The notes beneath the pieces are model-generated. The model did not search any database. It was not told the origin of the DNA and was given only the letters and a program-made list of their open reading frames with translations. A program made the position numbers and the translations under genes. Shown in pieces: positions 256 to 31,077 of a DNA stretch of 32,000 nucleotides. Source of the DNA: Candidatus Baldrarchaeum yapensis (GTDB lineage: Archaea; Asgardarchaeota; Baldrarchaeia; Baldrarchaeales; Baldrarchaeaceae); the NCBI GenBank assembly GCA_016840465.1, contig JAEOSH010000013.1, forward strand, positions 14,426 to 46,425, given 5' to 3'. The number at the start of each line of letters is the position of its first letter. The stretch's first letter is position 1.

Positions 256-346
256 GGTCCACTCCCCCTCCCAGACTCCGGAGATCCCGTATATAAAACA
301 TTTGATTCTCCCATCAGACCGCGTATTCAACCACCAACAGGAAATA

Positions 347-1570
347 TCACTGTTCCTCCACCCTTATCGCCCTACGGAATAACGTCTTGAACATGAGCAC
401 GTTCGCGCCCTGCCATCCGACGGTCTTCTTCCTCAGACCCGGGGGGACGACTATGCGCAGAGTTCCCTCCCGCTCCTCCACATCTATCGGCCTGAAGTCC
501 AAGATTCTCTCGAGAACCCACTCCACGTCACTCAGCTTTATCTGGGGGATCCTATTTCTGCAATCATTTGGGCAGTTCACGCAGAAATTGGACATCCAGC
601 ACACGTTTGCGCATGTCACGTTTGCAGTATACGCATTTGCGCAGCATGCAGACTTGTATGCCAACAGTCCGACCTCCTGTGAAACCTTGAGCGCCCTTCG
701 CTTGAGGTCCTCACCCCTTATGTAAACCTGCCTCCGCTCCACCCTTCCCACCCTCATCCTTATCTGCTTCATGTCTATGCCGGACGCGTACATTCTCTCT
801 ATGATCTTCTGAGAGACTCTCAGCGTGCCGATTATGACGCCCTCGGCACCAGCGTCCTTTGCCCTCCCGAGTATTTCCTCGAACTCTTGATCCGTCACTC
901 CCGGAATTATTGGTCTCAGGAACAAGAACGGTTTTAACCCGGCATCCCTCAAATTAGAAATCGATTCAAACCTCTTGTCCGGCGAAGGGGCATGTTTTTC
1001 CAGATTTCTCGCATGTTTTATCGTCACTATCGTGATTAGTGGACAGATTGGTGTTCCATCGGCAACGTCAACGATCCTGTCCGCGAGGTCTCTGCTTATG
1101 TACGACTTCGTCGAGAACTGTATGGGGTTCCCGAGATACTTCGAAAACGCCCTGATGTACTCTAGTGTCCTCTCGGCAACCTTCGGGTGGAAGGGCTCGG
1201 TTATGCTACCTATCGCTATGAACGTTCCGTACCTGCCCGGGACGAACCAAGGGTTCTCCAACAGGGCAAGAGTAACCTCCTCTCCGCTCAGTTCATAGGG
1301 AGATGTTCTGTCGAGGGGCTCTCCCATCTCGGCTATGTAGCAGTAAAGACATCCATATGCGCAACCGTGCGCAGTGTGAATTGTTATGCCACACGGGCGC
1401 GGAGGCCTGCGTGCATGCCCGTCATTCACCGCCTTCTTTACACTTTTCCTACCGAGGTTTCTGCGCAGTTCCTTCACCAACTCCGCCTTTAAATGGAGCA
1501 TCGCAATAGGGTTTATTACTTCCGTCTTCACAATTCCTCCCTCGTACGAGTCGCGTGACGAAATTTCCAT
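347..1570 (-). CDS. Radical SAM protein (SplB/photolyase-like archaeal family) with Cys-rich C-terminus
   Basis: CxxxCxxC motif (GCAYGCLYCY), SITEPF and FSTKS core motifs, RPIIPG motif. Exact start codon uncertain. Confidence 0.8.
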   Translation of the reverse strand: MEISSRDSYEGGIVKTEVINPIAMLHLKAELVKELRRNLGRKSVKKAVNDGHARRPPRPCGITIHTAHGCAYGCLYCYIAEMGEPLDRTSPYELSGEEVTLALLENPWFVPGRYGTFIAIGSITEPFHPKVAERTLEYIRAFSKYLGNPIQFSTKSYISRDLADRIVDVADGTPICPLITIVTIKHARNLEKHAPSPDKRFESISNLRDAGLKPFLFLRPIIPGVTDQEFEEILGRAKDAGAEGVIIGTLRVSQKIIERMYASGIDMKQIRMRVGRVERRQVYIRGEDLKRRALKVSQEVGLLAYKSACCANAYTANVTCANVCWMSNFCVNCPNDCRNRIPQIKLSDVEWVLERILDFRPIDVEEREGTLRIVVPPGLRKKTVGWQGANVLMFKTLFRRAIRVEEQ

Positions 1571-3245: not shown

Positions 3246-4664
3246 TCAAAACGGATGAAGTGGAGTGTTTTTCCTGATATTCCCGAGGACTTTTAAGTCC
3301 ACCAAATAAATTCTCTTCTCCTTTAAAATTTCGGCGGCCTCACTACTAACTCCACCTTTATGGAAGATCACGAGCCGGGAGTGTGGGTACTCATCTAAGT
3401 GTTTTTCGAGTTGCTCTATTTTCCTTTTAGGGACATCGGTCCCGAAATAGCATTCACCTAACAGGGTTCTCCCCTCAAAGTCTATTGCTAAGACATCTAT
3501 CTGCCCATATCTGCTCTTACCCATCCCAACGTACTTAAAGGGGCCGAGCACTAATTCTCTTCCGAGTGCGTCCTTAACCCTTATCTGCTTGCCGAGCGCA
3601 CCGAGCGTTTCCCTAACAAGCGCCTCAAACCCTATTGTAGAAACTCTCTTGAAGAGTTCTATGTCCTTAGCCATCTGCGGTGTCGTAGTGAACAACACCC
3701 ATGAGGCGAAGGTTCTGTCCTTCGCAACGTAAAAAACGTTCTTCCTAGATATGAAGACCTTGGATATGAGGTCTCTCTCGATAAGGTCGGAAAGCATCTG
3801 AGGAAGGTCACTTTCACCGATTGTGCTTTCTAGGTCTTCGTACTTCTTCCTGCCGATCGCCAGGTTGTAGATCACGAGTCTTTCCGTGGGGTTCAGGTCT
3901 TCATAGAGTGAGAAAAAGTACTCGGCGAGTGTTCCTTCCGTGAATTCCATTCTTAAGGCCTCATCGAGGTCTCCGTAGAGGGCGTACGCTTTTGTTAGGC
4001 ACTCCACGTAGAACGGAACAAAATCCGCCAGTATGACGATCCTATCCTTCACGTCGTCGGGAATTTTCCATCCGTACTCCCGCTCCATCAGCGATATTAG
4101 CCCTAGGGAGTTGTTGAAGTCCAAGGGTCCGAGGTTCAGTATGAAGTCAAAAGTTCTGGCTAAGATCCTCGCCTTTCGAATTATCTTCCTTATCTCCGCA
4201 AGGCTACTCGAGGTTGCGATTACCGCCGCCCCGCAATCCATAATGCAACCTCTCAGTACCGCCGCGAAGTTCGTGACATTTCCAAATTCCCTCTTCCTTC
4301 CCAGCGTCCTGAAGAGATTCGTAAACTCGTCCAGAACGATGACGTTCACGCCACGTTCCGAAACTTCCCTAAAGAAGTTCTCAAGTGCTGTTTTGTTATC
4401 CAGTCGTCCGACATCTACATCTTTCAGGCATAATTCCTCTGCCATCTGTCTCAGAAGATCTGATCCCCGCGTTACAGTCGAACAATTTATGTATACCCCT
4501 TTGAAACCCTGCCCTTCAACCTCCTCGAGAACTTTTAACGCGAGAACCGACTTCCCTATCCCCCTTCGACCCTTTATCAGGATCTTATCACCCCTCGTGA
4601 TCATCAAGGAGAGTAACTCAAGTTCTCTTTCTCTATTAACAAAATACTTGACCTTCGGTCTCAC
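3246..4664 (-). CDS. Archaeal ATPase (AAA) with winged helix and C-terminal DUF234-like PD-(D/E)xK domain
   Basis: FVNRERE start motif, Walker A GRRGIGKS, Walker B IVLDEF, C-terminal QIDVLA...GEC. Start re-assigned to GTG at 4664 behind a GGGGA SD. Confidence 0.85.
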   Translation of the reverse strand: MRPKVKYFVNRERELELLSLMITRGDKILIKGRRGIGKSVLALKVLEEVEGQGFKGVYINCSTVTRGSDLLRQMAEELCLKDVDVGRLDNKTALENFFREVSERGVNVIVLDEFTNLFRTLGRKREFGNVTNFAAVLRGCIMDCGAAVIATSSSLAEIRKIIRKARILARTFDFILNLGPLDFNNSLGLISLMEREYGWKIPDDVKDRIVILADFVPFYVECLTKAYALYGDLDEALRMEFTEGTLAEYFFSLYEDLNPTERLVIYNLAIGRKKYEDLESTIGESDLPQMLSDLIERDLISKVFISRKNVFYVAKDRTFASWVLFTTTPQMAKDIELFKRVSTIGFEALVRETLGALGKQIRVKDALGRELVLGPFKYVGMGKSRYGQIDVLAIDFEGRTLLGECYFGTDVPKRKIEQLEKHLDEYPHSRLVIFHKGGVSSEAAEILKEKRIYLVDLKVLGNIRKNTPLHPF

Positions 4665-10505: not shown

Positions 10506-10551
10506 TATTACAGCAATTGTATTACACTTAAGTGAATATCATATGTGTAAT
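10506..10551. promoter_or_regulatory. Possible autoregulatory operator of the RHH antitoxin
   Basis: TATTACA twice (10506, 10520) and inverted ATTACAC/GTGTAAT (10521-10527 / 10545-10551) overlapping the gene start. Confidence 0.35.
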
Positions 10552-10744
10552 CACAATCAGGATAGATGACGAACTCATCAAGGAATTGGAGGCGATAAAG
10601 GAGAGATACAAGTTCAAGTCGCTCAGCGAGGTGGTGAGGAAGGCAATAAAGGAATTCGTTCTGAGCAGAACGCTACCATGGAGTAGCCGCGAGGAAGTCT
10701 ACCGCTACTTCCGCGAGAAAAGGAAGGCTGTGCAGGGGGTCTGA
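10532..10744 (+). CDS. vapB: Ribbon-helix-helix (CopG/VapB-like) antitoxin, 3' end truncated by the repeat insertion
   Basis: VITIRIDDELIKELEAI...SLSEVVRKAIKEF RHH pattern. The stop codon is supplied by the first bases of the inserted element. The putative original tail lies at 10975-11010. Confidence 0.8.
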   Translation: MNIICVITIRIDDELIKELEAIKERYKFKSLSEVVRKAIKEFVLSRTLPWSSREEVYRYFREKRKAVQGV

Positions 10745-10975
10745 AACAGTTTTCGGTTTAAGTAATTTTCAGGCATTTTCGTAAAAGTTTAAATGGTATC
10801 GCTCCATTATTCGGTCAGGTCGAGGCCGATGAAAAGGACGAGGTTGATGAGTACGGGTGGGTTCCGCTTCGCCGAACCAGTCCGGTGAGCGTGCGAGCGA
10901 CCGGGAGCCGTGATGGCCCACTTGGTGGCTGAAAATTACTTTAAATTGCTGAATGCTACCAAGTGGGAGAACGGT
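10739..10975 (+). mobile_element. Non-autonomous non-coding repeat element, copy 1 (237 bp; 36-bp internal deletion relative to copy 2)
   Basis: Nearly identical to 22184-22456 (5 substitutions + one 36-nt indel), with unrelated flanks. Inserted at the end of vapB. 13-bp subterminal IR AAGTAATTTTCAG (10760-10772) / CTGAAAATTACTT (10929-10941). Boundaries uncertain by 1-2 nt. Confidence 0.8.
10780..10795 (+). promoter_or_regulatory. Archaeal BRE-TATA inside element copy 1 (CGTAAAAG-TTTAAATG)
   Basis: Matches the archaeal BRE + TATA consensus and is identical in both copies. Confidence 0.55.
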
Positions 10976-11006: not shown

Positions 11007-11487
11007 GTGATATATTTGGAGGCGTCGGCTCTCTGGACAATGTACTACGGCGAGCCCGGCGGGGATAACGTGATATGGCTCCTTAAGAACTACAAGTGCT
11101 ACACCGCGGAGTGGATGGTTCTGGAGTTGTGCAGAGCGGTTGCAAAGAAGTACAACCAGGGAGAAATAAATGATAAGGAGGCGCGCTCCCTCGAGATGTT
11201 CATACTGGCGGATATTGAGAGGCTGAAAAGGGAGGGGAGGCTGGAGTTAATAAGGATAACTTGGCCCCTGGATAAGGAAGGCATACCACCTCATTCTTCC
11301 ACTCAACCTCTATGCATCCGATGCACTACACTTGGCGGCGCTTCACTCCGGCGCAAAGGTCATGCTGGTCGATGACTTCCATTTTACGAGAATGGAGGAT
11401 AAAGTTAAAGGTATACGCATAGTACTCATCACGGAGAAGAAAGATAACATTATAAAGGTAATTCACGACTCAAAAAACAGCGATTAG
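11007..11487 (+). pseudogene. vapC: PIN-domain (VapC) toxin, frameshifted
   Basis: N-terminus IYLEASAL...LELCRAV. After a +1 shift at ~11270 the frame continues IRKAYHLILPLNLYASDALHLAALHSGAKVMLVDDFHF...SD* (PIN DALHLA motif). Confidence 0.85.
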
Positions 11488-22106: not shown

Positions 22107-22224
22107 ACCACCGGGTCGAAAAACGACCTCACAATAACCTTATTCGGAAGATGTTTTAATAATGGCGCTTTGTGGTGAACGGAGTCTGAAACAGTTTTCG
22201 GTTTAAGTAATTTTCAGGCATTTT

Positions 22225-22240
22225 CGTAAAAGTTTAAATG
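22225..22240 (+). promoter_or_regulatory. Archaeal BRE-TATA inside element copy 2
   Basis: CGTAAAAG-TTTAAATG, identical to copy 1. Confidence 0.55.
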
Positions 22241-22261
22241 GTATCGCTCCATTATTCGGTC

Positions 22262-22456
22262 AGGTCGAGGCCGATGAAGAGGACGAGGTTGATTAGTACG
22301 GGTGGGTTCCGCTTCGCCGAACCAGTCCGGTGAGCGTGCGGGCGACCGCACGGGATGGACTGGGTAAGGCGGGGCGGGCGACCGGGAGTCGTGATGGCCC
22401 ACTTGGTGGCTGAAAATTACTATAAATTGCTGAATGCTACCAAGTGGGAGAACGGT
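22262..22456 (+). ncRNA. Putative structured ncRNA encoded by the repeat element
   Basis: Nested stems found by eye: 22309-22318/22368-22377 (2 G·U), 22322-22328/22357-22363, 22335-22340/22347-22352; 13-bp stem 22398-22410/22436-22448 (1 G·U). Lies downstream of the internal promoter. Start inferred from TATA spacing. Confidence 0.45.
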
Positions 22457-22470
22457 ACGCGGCCCGTTAA

Positions 22471-23787
22471 TCATAGGGGGCGTATCGTGGAAATTACCTC
22501 TGCGTCGAGATAGAAGGTGTCTGCGCGGGTTATCCGGATCTCAAACTCGTAGCCTAGGTATTCTTCTCCGAGTTGGAGGACTATCGGTTTATAGGTGTAA
22601 TTGCGCGAAACAACACCACCCTTTATCCCTATTCCGGAAACCAACACCTCTCCCCGCCATCCAACCCATCTCTGGTTCCTGCGGTAGCTTATCTCCTTCA
22701 CGACCTTCGTCATGAGTCTGCTCCGCTCCTTTATTTTCCACCCCGGAACTTGAGGCTTCATCTTTGCCGCGGGGGTGTTTGGGCGGGGACCGAATCTTGA
22801 AATGTTCACAATGTCGGGCTCCAGTTCCTTGACAAGTTCAACTGTGTCCATGAACTGCTCCTCGGTCTCTCCCGGAAATCCCACTATCACGTCGGTCTCT
22901 ATCGTCATCTCTGGAATCTTCCTCCTTATTTCCTTCACTATCTGCCGGAACTCGTCCACAGTATATGGCCTGTTCATCCTGCGGAGAATCTCGTCGTTCC
23001 CCGACTGCACCGGTATATGTATGAACTTATACACCTTGGGGTGCTGGTACACCTCGAGCATCTCGTCGAGATAGTTGAGTAGGCGTCCAGGATTCATCAT
23101 GCCAATGCGGATTCTGAATTTACCCGGCACTTCGACAATTTTGCTCAACAATTCTGGGAGTGAGGTTCCGATGTCCGCGCCGTAGGCTATGGTGTCCTGC
23201 GCGGTTATCCATATCTCCCTGCAACCCTCCCTGACAAACCTCTCCACCTCTCTCACTATCGCATCTGGAGGGAAACTGAACAATCGTCCCCTGGCCAGCC
23301 TGACCGCGCAGTAGGTACAAGAGCCGAGACAGCCCTCACATATGGGAACTATCCCCACGACTTTGTTCTCCCTAAGTCGGGGTGTGCATACCTTAACCAT
23401 CTTATCTGATTTTATGTCAATGATCCCCCTTTCTCCCTCCACAATCCGGCGTGCTATTTCATGAATCCTCTGATAGGAAAATGGCCCAACGATTGCTGCG
23501 AAGTTCGGGATGCTCTTTATGATGCCCTCGAGGTTTATTTTGGGAAGACATCCGGCAACTATAACGGGCTTCCCGGTCGATGAAAGCTTCCTAAGTTTGT
23601 TCAGCACCTTAAATTCCGTTGGTACCTTGACCCCGCACGTGTTAACCACTATAATATCGGCTTCGCTCTCTGAGTCCACAATCTTGAACCCGTGTTCGGC
23701 CAGAATGCCTCTTATTATTTCGCCGTCCGCCTTGTTCTGCGCACACCCGTATGTTATTACGTGAACCTTAGTGCCATTTGAGGGCAC
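22471..23787 (-). CDS. mtaB: tRNA t6A37 C2-methylthiotransferase (archaeal MiaB-like/e-MtaB)
   Basis: UPF0004 domain (TYGCAQN, NTCGV, GCLP), CLGSCTYC radical SAM motif, IVGFPGET, C-terminal TRAM-like region. Confidence 0.9.
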   Translation of the reverse strand: MPSNGTKVHVITYGCAQNKADGEIIRGILAEHGFKIVDSESEADIIVVNTCGVKVPTEFKVLNKLRKLSSTGKPVIVAGCLPKINLEGIIKSIPNFAAIVGPFSYQRIHEIARRIVEGERGIIDIKSDKMVKVCTPRLRENKVVGIVPICEGCLGSCTYCAVRLARGRLFSFPPDAIVREVERFVREGCREIWITAQDTIAYGADIGTSLPELLSKIVEVPGKFRIRIGMMNPGRLLNYLDEMLEVYQHPKVYKFIHIPVQSGNDEILRRMNRPYTVDEFRQIVKEIRRKIPEMTIETDVIVGFPGETEEQFMDTVELVKELEPDIVNISRFGPRPNTPAAKMKPQVPGWKIKERSRLMTKVVKEISYRRNQRWVGWRGEVLVSGIGIKGGVVSRNYTYKPIVLQLGEEYLGYEFEIRITRADTFYLDAEVISTIRPL

Positions 23788-26531: not shown

Positions 26532-28355
26532 TTATAAGAACTCTATATATTCCTCAGCACTTCCTTCCTCAAGGAGGGAGAGAAGCCTATCGTTATACGC
26601 CCTTCTTATGTCTCCACGCGTTATTATGCCTATAAGCTTGTGAGTTATGGGATCCACGACCGGAAGCCTGCCTATTTCGTGTTTCATCATCTTATCAAAC
26701 GCATCAAGTAGCGTTTCGTCCGGATACGCCACTATGAGCTTCCGGCTCATCACATCCTTGACCTGAGTCTTCGGTCTCAGTTCAGCCGGAGTCCTGAGCA
26801 CGTCTGTCAGTGTTATTATTCCCACAAGGTTACCCGTCTTATCAAGCACCGGTATCCCCCTTATTCCTCTCTGCGACATTATCTCCGCGGCTCTGGAGAC
26901 CGGATCATCCGGCCTTATCGTTATAACATCGCCTGTCATCGCCTCCTTCACGAGTATTGTTTTAAGAAGAGGAATCTGGTACTCACCCCTGTGAGCGGGT
27001 GACTTATGCCTAGATCGCACCTGACTCCGGTAGATGGTGTTCCTCCCTGTAATGATGTATGCGATTATTGTGGCGATCATGGAGGGGGCCAACAGGGTAT
27101 AGGTTCCGGTCATCTCACTGACCATCAGGATCACGGCGATCGGGACCTTCCCGACCCCGCCGAAGAACGCCATCATCCCCACAATGACAAAGGGGGCAAC
27201 TCCCATCCCGAAATCGGGGAAAATCATCTTGCATATGAACCAGAGGAGAGCCCCGATAGATCCTCCTATTACCAGGGCGGGAGCAAATACTCCTCCACTT
27301 CCGCCGGATCCGACCGAGAACGCGGTTGCGAGTATTTTCGCGAACGGCAATATTATCAGTATTAACAACGGTATATATGTGAAATCCTCGTAGATCATCA
27401 TCTGCAACCATCCGTAGCCGGTTCCCAACACATGGGGGACAAACAGCGCAATTACGCCGACGACAAGACCGCCTATTGCTGGCCTTAGGTATCCTGGTAT
27501 GGAGAGCCTGCGAAACGTATCATGTACAAAGTAAAACGTGCGAATGTAAAGTATTCCGAAAAGTCCGCATAAAATTCCAAGCACAGCGAAGAGTGGAAGG
27601 GTTAAAGGATCATGGAATATGTACTCGTTAGAACACTCGAATATTGGAGACCAACCAGTGAACGACGCTACTATGCAGTAGGCTATTACCGATGCTATGA
27701 AGGCGGGTATGAGGGCCTCGACCTCGAAGTCCGCGAGGTAAAGTATTTCGGCGGCAAGTATCGCACCACCAAGCGGTGCCTTGAAAATAGATCCTATTCC
27801 AGCACCTATTCCCACTGCGACAGCGATTCTTCTGTCATGTGCGTTTAGTTTCAGTACCTTCCCAAGAAGCGCTCCTATTCCCGCACCGATTTGTGCAATG
27901 GGTCCCTCTCTTCCCGCACTTCCTCCCGATCCTATTGTCACCGCCGATGCTGTCAGTTTAACGAGGGGGACGCGTGCCCTTATGAATCCCTTCTTTATAT
28001 GGTAAGCCTCTATTGCTGCATCCGTTCCATGGCCCTCAGCCTCGGGTGCAAGAAACGACACCAAAAGACCACTTATGAGGCCACCAAGAGTTGTGACTAA
28101 AGGTATCAGGAAACGTCTTTCTTCCGAGAACACAACCTCGGTGCTTCCCTCTCCCGCGGGCGCGGGTGGTGAATGACCAGCTATAGTTCCTAGGAAGAAA
28201 TCGGTACATACGTCTAATGCCACATAGAAGATACAGGCACCTAAACCGCAAACCATCCCTATCAGGAAAGAAATGGGGAACCATTTTTCGAGATATGTAA
28301 GAGCCTTCGAGATCGAATATGAACTTGAGCTTCGTGTGGTCATCACCGAATACAC
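26532..28355 (-). CDS. CLC-family chloride channel/transporter with tandem C-terminal CBS domains (paralog A)
   Basis: GHGTD, GSAGREGP, GGSGGVFAP, KVPIA...EMTG motifs; two CBS repeats. Confidence 0.93.
   Translation of the reverse strand: MYSVMTTRSSSSYSISKALTYLEKWFPISFLIGMVCGLGACIFYVALDVCTDFFLGTIAGHSPPAPAGEGSTEVVFSEERRFLIPLVTTLGGLISGLLVSFLAPEAEGHGTDAAIEAYHIKKGFIRARVPLVKLTASAVTIGSGGSAGREGPIAQIGAGIGALLGKVLKLNAHDRRIAVAVGIGAGIGSIFKAPLGGAILAAEILYLADFEVEALIPAFIASVIAYCIVASFTGWSPIFECSNEYIFHDPLTLPLFAVLGILCGLFGILYIRTFYFVHDTFRRLSIPGYLRPAIGGLVVGVIALFVPHVLGTGYGWLQMMIYEDFTYIPLLILIILPFAKILATAFSVGSGGSGGVFAPALVIGGSIGALLWFICKMIFPDFGMGVAPFVIVGMMAFFGGVGKVPIAVILMVSEMTGTYTLLAPSMIATIIAYIITGRNTIYRSQVRSRHKSPAHRGEYQIPLLKTILVKEAMTGDVITIRPDDPVSRAAEIMSQRGIRGIPVLDKTGNLVGIITLTDVLRTPAELRPKTQVKDVMSRKLIVAYPDETLLDAFDKMMKHEIGRLPVVDPITHKLIGIITRGDIRRAYNDRLLSLLEEGSAEEYIEFL
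27070..27179. repeat. 110-bp tract, 100% identical (inverted) to 30427-30536
   Basis: Base-by-base comparison of the two CLC paralogs; flanks diverge at synonymous sites. Confidence 0.9.
27679..27780. repeat. 102-bp tract, 100% identical (inverted) to 29781-29882
   Basis: Base-by-base comparison of the two CLC paralogs. Confidence 0.9.
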
Positions 28356-29217
28356 CCTGCTTTATTGATATTTTTATATGTCATTTGCCGATACTCTCGC
28401 GTGCTCGGTGCGTAATTATCTTTTATCTGGGCGTTTTTTGAGGATGTATGATACCGTGGGGAATCCCCCGTTGGACGGGTTTTATGACAGTATTATTTGC
28501 GTTAATCCCCTGATACTGTTGTTAAACCATATTCAATTTTAATAACTGATTTTACATTCTTATTTACATTCTTACAAATTCTCTCATCAGATACTTTTAA
28601 ACTTTAGTTTAAAAGTACATTTTACGAAAAGTAATACGGCAAATATCCGTATAGGGCGGGCAGTGGCGTGAGATCCGATTACAACCAGTGAATTTGCAGC
28701 AGTTTTCCAAACAGTTAAATTTTCACATCCTACTGGCAGATGACGGAACCATAAGTATGATTTTTTGATGGTGATGATTTATTTTATCATCATCTTATTG
28801 TCGCCCTTAACAACGTGAGTAAGAAGTCCGAAGAAAAGTAGAGTACTCAGCAAATCATGTAATACTCTTGTTAACGTGGTTAACGTGCTGATATGGAATC
28901 CTGCTGAACACTTCTATCCGATTTCTAGTTATAAAACTCTAAGATGCTGAAAGAATTTTGATGACTTAAAATCGTTGTAATAAAGATTTTGATGACACAG
29001 ATAAACTTCTCACTTTCTGTAATAGTTATGCAGTTATCCGACGTCAATAAAAAATGGTAGTATCTCTTCAGAAAACCAAAATTTAAAAAACCTCTAAGGA
29101 AATGATCGTTTTGGACATGAAGTCCTTCAAAGCGGCATCTATGTTGCTTATTGCGGATACCACTGATCGTGCCATCGCATTAAAGACGCCTTAGATAACG
29201 GTAATGCAAAAGCGCGG

Positions 29218-31077
29218 GTGATACATGCAATGACGTACGAGAGACGTTCCGCTCCGGGAATATTAACGTATCTTGAAAAGTGGATTCCCATCTCCGTTCT
29301 AATAGGCATTTTCTGCGGATTCGGCGCAATAGTGCTTTATAAGTTTCTCGAGTTGTGTGTTCATTTCTTCCTTTGGGAGTTGGCCGGATACCATCCACCA
29401 GCACCCGCGGGGGAGGGCTCAACGAAAGTTATATTTTCAAATAAGGCTCTCCTGATACCGCTAGTGACAACGCTCGGAGGTCTTATCAGTGGGGTGATTG
29501 TTTACAAGCTTGCACCTGAAGCGGAGGGTGATGGTACAGAGGCTGCAATTAATGTTTTTCACAATAAGGGCGGATACGTGAGACCGCAGGTCCCCCTCGT
29601 GAAACTTGTGACATCGTCGATAACGATAGGTTCCGGAGGAAGTGCGGGAAGAGAGGGGCCCATCGCACAGATAGGAGCAGGTTGCGGATCACTGATCAGC
29701 AGACTTCTAAAATTGAATGCGCATGACAGGAGGATTGCCGTTGCAGCTGGTGTCGGCGCGGGAATGGGTGCAATATTCAGGGCACCGCTTGGTGGTGCGA
29801 TACTTGCCGCCGAAATACTTTACCTCGCGGACTTCGAGGTCGAGGCCCTCATACCCGCCTTCATAGCATCGGTAATAGCCTATAGCATTTTTGCGTCAAT
29901 CGTGGGGTGGTCTCCCATTTTCCTCTGCCCCGAGGAATCGATTTTTTTGGACCCGGTGATGCTTCTGCTTTCCGCGATTTTGGGGATCATGTGTGGGCTT
30001 TACGGAATCCTATATGCGAAGACCTTCTATTATGTTTCCGAGAAGTTCCACGAACTTCCCATTCCTAGGTATGCGAAGCCTGCATTAGGCGGGCTTCTGG
30101 TTGGTATAATGGGTATTTTCATGCCCCAGATACTCGGAACGGGGTATGGGTGGCTCCAGTTACTGATACTGGGTGATTTCTCCGACATTGGCGCTCCATA
30201 CATTTCGTCAAGTTCCCCACCTCCCATGTACATGCTAATACTGATATTGACAATACTACCTCTCGCGAAGATACTAGCGACCGCGTTGACCGTCGGGTCC
30301 GGGGGAAGTGGTGGAGTATTCGCTCCCGCCCTCGTAATAGGGGGATGTGTGGGAGCTCTTTTATGGGCCATCTGCAAGTGCCTATATCCCGATCTTAACA
30401 TAAGTTTGCCCGTTTTTGTGGTAATCGGGATGATGGCGTTCTTCGGCGGGGTCGGGAAGGTCCCGATCGCCGTGATCCTGATGGTCAGTGAGATGACCGG
30501 AACCTATACCCTGTTGGCCCCCTCCATGATCGCCACCGTGCTGGCATACGTGATCACTGGAAAAAACACAATATTCCCGAGTCAGGTCCGCTCTAGGGCG
30601 GACTCTCCAGCGCACAGGGGAGAGTTCTACATTCCGTTGCTGAGGACAATACTCGTAGAGGACGTGATGACGAGAGAGGTTATAACGATAGAGCCGGAGG
30701 CTTCCCTCTCAAAGGCCGCTGGGATCATGTCCCAGAAGGGGATCAAAGGGCTACCAGTTGTTGACAGAAATGAAAACCTTGTGGGTATTGTGACGCTAAT
30801 GGATGTTCTGAAAGTTCCAGCGGAAGTGCGGTCGGAGGTTCAGGTTAAGGAGGTTATGAGCCGGAGACTCATTGTAACGTATCCCAAGGAGACGTTGTTT
30901 GACGCGTTTGACAAGATGGTTAAGAACAACATCGGGAGACTGCCGGTTGTCGATCCGCAAACGAACAAGCTTGTCGGTATAATCACGCGCGGTGACATAA
31001 GAAGGGCGTACAGCGATAGACTATTCGAGATGCTATCCGAGTGGACAAGTACCGAATCGGTGGACTTCCTGTCTTGA
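29218..31077 (+). CDS. CLC-family chloride channel/transporter with tandem CBS domains (paralog B)
   Basis: GDGTE, GSAGREGP, GGSGGVFAP, two CBS repeats; divergent from paralog A across an ~860-bp AT-rich spacer. Confidence 0.93.
   Translation: MIHAMTYERRSAPGILTYLEKWIPISVLIGIFCGFGAIVLYKFLELCVHFFLWELAGYHPPAPAGEGSTKVIFSNKALLIPLVTTLGGLISGVIVYKLAPEAEGDGTEAAINVFHNKGGYVRPQVPLVKLVTSSITIGSGGSAGREGPIAQIGAGCGSLISRLLKLNAHDRRIAVAAGVGAGMGAIFRAPLGGAILAAEILYLADFEVEALIPAFIASVIAYSIFASIVGWSPIFLCPEESIFLDPVMLLLSAILGIMCGLYGILYAKTFYYVSEKFHELPIPRYAKPALGGLLVGIMGIFMPQILGTGYGWLQLLILGDFSDIGAPYISSSSPPPMYMLILILTILPLAKILATALTVGSGGSGGVFAPALVIGGCVGALLWAICKCLYPDLNISLPVFVVIGMMAFFGGVGKVPIAVILMVSEMTGTYTLLAPSMIATVLAYVITGKNTIFPSQVRSRADSPAHRGEFYIPLLRTILVEDVMTREVITIEPEASLSKAAGIMSQKGIKGLPVVDRNENLVGIVTLMDVLKVPAEVRSEVQVKEVMSRRLIVTYPKETLFDAFDKMVKNNIGRLPVVDPQTNKLVGIITRGDIRRAYSDRLFEMLSEWTSTESVDFLS

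Follow-up and report, generated by a model that had tools for sequence, protein, structure and literature searches.

What is a 272-bp sequence that recurs in an archaeal genome without a protein gene of its own, and what might the structured RNA that it carries do? We address this for an element in a 32,000-nt stretch (the window) of contig JAEOSH010000013.1 of Candidatus Baldrarchaeum yapensis, at 22184-22455 on the plus strand. The element is an internal-deletion miniature inverted-repeat transposable element (MITE) of a small archaeal transposon, whose full-length parent was found in a genome of the same order. Judged from sequence comparison, its RNA is probably an omega-RNA-like guide cassette of the RIIIr-4 'RHH/MazE-TnpB' clade, carried by an IS607-type MITE. 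The genome assembly analysed has 100 contigs (2.27 Mb, 96% complete), and the window lies on the contig that we call C68.

The copy at 22184-22455 (copy B) is complete. Its limits are those of the homology among six genomic copies, which starts at GTCTGAAAC and stops at GAGAACGG when junctions are compared within the genome. Four metagenome runs from hydrothermal or sediment samples have contig breaks at 22184-22187 and 22455-22456; in them read depth over the element is 3-10x flank depth, and no contig joins across the element to give an empty site for copy B. The preliminary description reported two copies 11.4 kb apart with five substitutions, and pairwise alignment gives exactly these values for copy B and copy A (236 bp, 10739-10974, plus strand), the latter located by a repeat search. 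Copy A is a defective derivative, with a 36-nt deletion between short direct repeats (GCGrGCGACCG) that removed the 3′ halves of all three central stems of the RNA. The element had been called twice-repeated, which falls short: the genome also holds copies on C70 (97% identity) and C63 (81%), two more that are cut by contig ends on C83 and C32, and two solo left ends, on C80 and C63. The junctions of the six copies agree with the earlier claim that there are no terminal inverted repeats (TIRs) and no target-site duplication (TSD) longer than 2 nt; the right boundary had been placed at 22456 and is at 22455. Flanking sequences differ from copy to copy, and ARAGORN found no tRNA in the window.

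A longer version containing an open reading frame (ORF), which the preliminary description proposed to look for, exists. Among 60 related genomes screened by sequence search there is one carrier, a Candidatus Baldrarchaeota metagenome-assembled genome (MAG) of the same order (G004); the element was not found in the other 59. On G004 contig C267, ~1.2 kb lies between the element's first 40 nt and its last 227 nt and encodes, on the strand opposite to the RNA, a 345-aa TnpB-like ORF whose stop codon lies within the left end, and a 59-aa ORF that overlaps its start. Since the parent carries these two genes between left end and promoter, the window element is an internal-deletion MITE. The element is not an ordinary MITE of a DDE insertion sequence (IS) with normal TIRs, the case that had been named as refuting the original proposal. 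The 44-nt left-end module (22184-22227, plus strand) is found alone next to the TnpB-like ORF in G004. The C63 copy retains ~50 extra nt that match both edges of the G004 protein-gene insert; it and the window element are two independent internal deletions, both of which removed the protein genes and spared the promoter and RNA, the window type also sparing the 44-nt left end.

Metagenome contigs from the same samples run from the left end into a TnpB-like 3′ end slightly unlike that of G004, which shows that the community contains full-length elements. Two other, unrelated genomes likewise have RNA-only copies, one (G061) with seven RNA matches versus one full gene and the other (G062) with ten RNA matches, about five of them with an adjacent gene; RNA copy number ranges from 3 to 10 per genome. 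In a Desulfurococcales MAG (locus L048) two extra weaker RNA copies, at 2685-2852 and 3264-3422, lie just downstream of a full-length element, which suggests nested or tandem insertions of RNA-only derivatives.

The structured RNA scaffold (~194 nt) spans 22262-22455 on the plus strand, its putative transcription start placed from the TATA position and the 3′ end of its conserved part flush with the element boundary; the terminal ...GAACGG coincides exactly with the point where the copies lose homology. It is conserved family-wide in strand and secondary structure. The related-locus search covered 63 loci, oriented with the TnpB-like gene on the plus strand. Iterative nhmmer with Baldrarchaeota seeds found the RNA in ~45 archaeal loci, always on the opposite strand and ~180-400 nt upstream of the TnpB-like ORF. 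A covariance model gave 49 matches in 72 sources, again on the opposite strand and upstream of that ORF, and no match in the resident canonical IS607 loci. In copy B this model matches 22257-22455 (132.8 bits, E 6e-33).

A MAFFT alignment of 19 sequences yielded an RNAalifold structure of 31 pairs, 22 of which show compensatory changes, and served to build the covariance model. In the model-fitted alignment 94.8% of cells are paired (65.5% when shuffled, at most 53% with partners slid), double changes occur in 27/31 pairs, and 0/500 shuffles reach any observed measure; that alignment, being fitted to the model, favours the structure, and the alignment by MAFFT alone provides an independent check. 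U-G pairs that are nearly invariant are present on the RNA strand only, so the constraint acts on RNA of that polarity. The plus strand of copy B folds at -102.7 kcal/mol, against -77.8 for the minus strand, with a z of -5.0 and 0/200 shuffles as good. The preliminary description had already taken the plus strand as the functional polarity, and both the folding energies and the covariation agree.

Much of the architecture that it read from the letters also stands. The sequence contains the nested stems CCGCTTCGCC/GGCGGGGCGG, CCAGTCC/GGACTGG and CGTGCG/CGCACG, the predicted internal promoter and a 13-bp hairpin near the right end (helix 5; 22398-22448, plus strand, arms 22398-22410 and 22436-22448), which shows compensatory changes in 9/9 pairs. 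The closing helix is another matter: the proposed TACGG/YCGTG pairing is not what the family conserves. In helix 4 it is YCGU (UCGU here, 22389-22392, plus strand) that pairs with the terminal ACGG (22452-22455), and CG/GC swaps occur in 16/42 sequences; the C/T difference between copies A and B, which had been said to keep pairing, is still wobble-compatible there. By eye no canonical K-turn could be fitted to the GA-containing internal loop. No T-run terminator was seen on inspection of the element.

The predicted promoter, a transcription factor B recognition element (BRE) with TATA box, lies at 22225-22239 on the plus strand; in the parent the RNA and the protein genes are divergent, with this as the one TATA box between them. 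Every family locus inspected for it has a TATA box 25-35 nt upstream of the conserved RNA start. In G004 and Archaeoglobus profundus the intergenic stretch (58 nt in G004) contains one near-palindromic TATA box, ~22 nt from the RNA start and ~35 nt from the ATG of the small ORF, and this single box probably serves both directions.

The protein partner identifies the family. The 345-aa protein scores 40.6 bits with NCBIfam TIGR01766 (TnpB-related), above cut-off, and guided_TnpB matches partly; neither it nor the small ORFs matched anything in the Pfam copy searched. Its ~150 homologues all carry a PF27229 (SSO2105_N) tag in precomputed annotations, and their hosts are hyperthermophilic archaea, including A. 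profundus and Staphylothermus hellenicus; a literature search on SSO2105 gave no match. In an alignment of 28 sequences D195, E259 and D322-x-H324 do not vary, and a zinc finger or Cys cluster is lacking. The AlphaFold2 model (pLDDT 85.6) matches Cas12f, ISDra2 TnpB and ISFba1 TnpB, and a PDB sequence search gave a marginal Cas12X match only. Altae-Tran et al. (2023, PMC10691335) describe RIIIr-4 as zinc-finger-less, with the RuvC-III Asp replaced by His and an RHH/MazE-like gene linked. The parent protein fits this clade, lacking the zinc finger, having the Asp-to-His change and having a small gene upstream. Between G004 and A. profundus, members of two phyla, the small ORFs share 49% identity.

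A 374-aa weak TnpB match on C55 of the window's genome was rejected as unrelated to the family; it is an ordinary IS607-type tnpB interrupted by another ORF. On C55 (locus L084, 769-2654) a resident IS607-type tnpB ORF leads straight into a 257-aa ORF with a helix-turn-helix (HTH) and LAGLIDADG-like look; an intein, or a homing endonuclease inserted into tnpB or beside it, may account for this.

How the element moves is indicated by a dinucleotide. A GG in the left flank directly adjoins the element in 7/8 copies and in all type-1 family loci inspected; at copy B it is at 22181-22182 (plus strand), a putative recombination core or motif resembling a target-adjacent motif (TAM), with A 22183 between it and the element. 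RNA subtypes ending ...GGAACCC have left flank GCC in 5/5 cases and those ending ...CAACCAC have GAC in 5/5, in a tally made by eye in which the subtypes are clades and the independent switches hence few. The last two nucleotides of the RNA pair in helix 4 with a complementary dinucleotide, and the two switch together (CG in 25-26 sequences, GC in 15-16). In A. profundus a copy splits a tyrosine-recombinase (integrase) ORF whose halves rejoin in frame across a single GG. The preliminary description had proposed GT as the junction core; this fits the copies in this genome but not G004 or other members, where the right flank starts with C; the core that suits the whole family is GG.

In IS607 elements there are neither TIRs nor TSDs, terminus and target both have GG, a 5′-TGGG TAM lies beside the left end and the omega-RNA scaffold ends ...UCGG (Chen et al. 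2018, PMC6188088; Zedaveinyte et al. 2023, PMC10690162). The matching dinucleotide at terminus and left flank, together with the lack of TIR and TSD, is a signature from which we infer IS607-type transposition by a serine recombinase. A serine-recombinase TnpA is lacking in both the MITE and its full-length parent, and the genome has four IS607-type TnpA genes elsewhere (MerR-type HTH plus resolvase domain), so that only mobilisation in trans is possible. By tblastn, TnpA is near only 1 of ~63 family loci. The left end of a resident IS607-type element (C96:26179; TnpA at C96:26236-26850) resembles that of the MITE, and its right end seems to finish ...ATAACGG; a pattern spanning both left ends has no other match in the genome, a result that is only suggestive since the pattern was written after both ends were seen. 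In locus L035 an IS607-type TnpA (332-940, minus strand) lies 230 nt beyond the RNA 3′ end in the same reading direction; it is 82% identical to the C55 TnpA of the window's genome, though the lineages differ, which hints at horizontal spread of the transposase.

On these grounds we favour the guide reading for the RNA. The partner, a protein of TnpB fold, requires a guide, and no other conserved non-coding RNA was found in the element. The 3′ end of the RNA falls on the right boundary, a conserved motif adjoins the opposite end, as expected of a TAM, and the MITEs keep the RNA together with its promoter. The full-length element would then read, in order, left end, TnpB-like gene with small DNA-binding-type gene (minus strand), TATA box, ~194-nt RNA (plus strand) and right end. 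An IS607-type serine recombinase would move it in trans, with crossover at the dinucleotide common to right terminus and target (GG here). Transcription of the RNA would start at its own promoter and continue past the right end, which would make the adjoining flank the guide of the TnpB-like protein; by analogy with omega-RNA architecture, and with an assumed length, the putative guide at copy B is 22456-22475 (plus strand). The nuclease could then cut the empty donor site, marked by the left-flank GG motif and the guide-matching flank, and homing would restore the element, while the small upstream protein might repress the shared divergent promoter. The preliminary description's proposal of a non-autonomous, RNA-encoding element mobilised in trans, possibly a stand-alone guide cassette, is thus supported in all testable parts, with a guide function that we infer. 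Relative to the literature searched, what is new is the RNA's position, strand and promoter, as well as the evidence for mobility.

Several observations weigh on the other side. In the TnpB literature searched, no guide RNA is described whose strand is opposite to that of its nuclease gene. Neither a single-protein search nor a 28-sequence profile found the TnpB-like gene in the window's genome, in an assembly 96% complete. Copy A has lost the central rod, and its covariance-model match is only 98.4 bits, at 10812-10974. The small ORFs fall below Pfam RHH significance. Copy B has the left flank GGA, with an extra A before the element. The limits stated above for the left-flank tally and for the left-end pattern count here as well, as does a mild rise in constraint at the 3′ end of the TnpB-like ORF, which bears on the first of the alternatives.

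According to that alternative, the true guide is in the canonical place: it would be on the strand of the nuclease gene and overlap the left end together with the 3′ end of the TnpB-like ORF. The divergent RNA would have another task, such as antitoxin-like or antisense regulation of the two-gene operon. Every characterised TnpB omega-RNA is downstream of tnpB and on its strand, and the authors who defined RIIIr-4 treated it as a non-mobile, putative toxin-antitoxin pair and guessed the guide to be in the 3′ untranslated region, the downstream regions being those searched (PMC10691335). A GTTTC motif is conserved just past the stop codon. Identity at four-fold sites is 0.36-0.45 over most of the TnpB-like ORF, 0.57 in its first tenth, which overlaps the small ORF, and 0.51 in its last tenth (~100 nt). 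The last value is only mildly raised, and so modest a signal weakens the case for a guide there; the left-end inverted-repeat arm located in these ~100 nt accounts for it. Only 9-45 nt separate the stop codon from the boundary. Two independent MITE deletions dropped the ORF end and kept the divergent RNA with its promoter, and it is this RNA, not the ORF end, that finishes on the core dinucleotide as IS607 omega-RNAs do. An antisense role fails because the divergent RNA does not overlap the protein genes. We regard a guide in the canonical place as unlikely.

A role of the RNA in transposition itself is less probable still. In this reading the RNA would act like a bridge RNA or serve in end recognition, its loop pairing with the left end and its terminal nucleotides marking where crossover takes place. 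As the preliminary description noted, a 12-bp subterminal inverted repeat has one arm inside the terminal hairpin loop: the left arm, AGTAATTTTCAG, is at 22206-22217 (plus strand) and the right arm at 22410-22421, so that the loop is complementary to the left end at 12/12 nt. CTGAAA/CTGAAT motifs accompany this repeat in the element; in IS607 elements TnpA binds short repeat motifs near the ends, and the intermediate is a double-stranded circle. Loop/left-end repeats of differing sequence recur in about half of 27 family loci. This complementarity, with the last two nucleotides forming the core in a covarying helix, is the basis for supposing that the RNA recognises both transposon end and target, linking the TnpB-like protein or a recombinase to bridge-RNA-like end recognition or transposition, a supposition that we rate as very doubtful. 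The other half of the loci have no significant repeat; inverted repeats at two ends are, in double-stranded DNA, ordinary sites of protein binding; the associated protein fold is that of TnpB/Cas12f, not of a recombinase; and IS607 serine recombinases need no RNA (PMC6188088).

There is very little probability that a host non-coding RNA, box C/D-like or otherwise bound by L7Ae, is merely carried by the mobile element. The RNA has four conserved GAUGA boxes, and weak sub-threshold Rfam matches to C/D small RNAs (sRNAs) occur at E 1.6-7.9. The whole window has no Rfam match at gathering threshold, and the RNA is absent from Rfam; at permissive E-values the element gives chance-level small nucleolar RNA and microRNA matches only, the best at 14.6-15.2 bits (E 1.6-3.9), far below gathering scores, archaeal box C/D sRNA models included. 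The RNA is seen only beside a TnpB-like gene or as a mobile copy, at 3 to 10 copies per genome, and 59 of the 60 related genomes lack it by sequence search. Finally, an IS200/IS605-type element (Y1 TnpA, single-strand 'peel and paste') or an IS110-type element can hardly be credited despite the right-end hairpin, the lack of TSD and the 2-nt shared core, since the genome has no detectable Y1 TnpA (PF01797; control genomes were positive) and no intact IS110 DEDD transposase (one interrupted fragment, 24.8 bits, below cut-off), the left end has on inspection no counterpart of the right-end hairpin, and the core dinucleotide at terminus and target, with its GG/CC/AC switching, fits serine-recombinase crossover; the earlier remark that neither family fits cleanly was sound, and IS607 fits.

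The closest known systems are IS607 elements with TnpB and omega-RNA or reRNA: the C. botulinum IStron with TnpA-S/TnpB (PMC10690162), the ISFba1 TnpB-reRNA (PDB 8iaz) and IS607/IS1535 (PMC6188088). Common to these and our element are the absence of TIR and target duplication, GG at terminus and target, a G-rich motif at the left end, an RNA scaffold ending ...CGG exactly at the right boundary, and a partner with TnpB fold. Unlike them, our element has no tnpA inside; its nuclease gene is inverted relative to the RNA and to left/right polarity; its RNA is under its own predicted TATA promoter rather than processed out of the tnpB transcript; no homology of the scaffold is detectable, and the covariance model has no match in the resident IS607 loci; and other subtypes have CC or AC in place of GG. 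TnpB omega-RNA and reRNA lie on the same strand, downstream of or overlapping the tnpB 3′ end, whereas here the RNA is upstream on the opposite strand in all 45-49 matches; conserved structure and a constant TnpB-fold partner in relatives are shared.

With RIIIr-4 as described (PMC10691335) the family shares the zinc-finger-less protein of ~345 aa, the His at the RuvC-III catalytic position, the small DNA-binding-type gene upstream and the hyperthermophilic archaeal hosts; it differs in that its elements have defined ends, split a gene, spawn MITEs and carry, on the other strand and upstream, an RNA that is conserved. Omega-RNAs that stand alone and are mobilised have been described before (Altae-Tran et al. 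2021, as summarised in PMC10691335). The window element resembles these and derivatives of the palindrome-associated transposable element (PATE) kind in being protein-less, in keeping its ends and a putative guide-RNA gene, and in having several copies per genome. Known stand-alone omega-RNAs have their effector in the same genome; here the effector was not found in this assembly, and the RNA has its own promoter. The PATEs of IS200/IS605 have subterminal hairpins at both ends and insert 3′ of a 4-5-nt target; the window element has no left-end match to its right-end hairpin, and no Y1 TnpA was found in its genome. To the bridge or seek RNA of IS110 it is alike as a structured, element-encoded RNA with its own promoter near one end, an end-complementary loop and a 2-nt core. 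The partner, however, has a TnpB fold and is not a DEDD recombinase, of which the genome has no intact gene, and the RNA points outward at the opposite end of the element from the bridge-RNA location.

Some copies lie in or beside identifiable genes. Copy A is at the end of an RHH/VapB-like antitoxin gene (10532-10744; Pfam RHH_1, 30.6 bits), whose stop codon is now within the copy. It parts this gene from a downstream 122-aa ORF (11007-11375), so that a presumed toxin-antitoxin operon is split, and the MITE promoter is directed into that ORF. The C70 copy (C70:10645-11363; locus L002, 1346-2064) lies between N- and C-terminal remnants of one acyl-CoA dehydrogenase gene of which ~250 codons are gone; this is an element-associated deletion, not a simple insertion. 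The solo 44-nt left ends (C80:5959-6231 and C63:370-412) adjoin unrelated sequence, the C80 junction being seen in 4/4 metagenome runs; they may represent the same left end serving different cargo, or deletion relics. Elsewhere in the window, two paralogous and divergently placed ORFs of ~610 aa (26532-28355, minus strand, and 29218-31077, plus strand) correspond to a pair of long, imperfect inverted repeats at 26584-31022, which are 608 and 565 nt in length and 72-76% complementary.

RIIIr-4, one of the five major TnpB clades, has been presumed to be an immobile toxin-antitoxin pair and has had no guide RNA assigned to it, since only the region downstream of the gene had been searched for guides. 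If the guide reading is true, the clade would become a testable and very compact RNA-guided system (~345 aa, zinc-finger-less, thermostable) with a defined scaffold and a predictable TAM, and would be a mobile IS607-type element, not a domesticated gene pair. [quoted passage not shown] In this Asgard-related genome of the Baldrarchaeota order, putative guide cassettes are spreading as MITEs, which have disrupted a vapB-like operon and replaced most of an acyl-CoA dehydrogenase gene.

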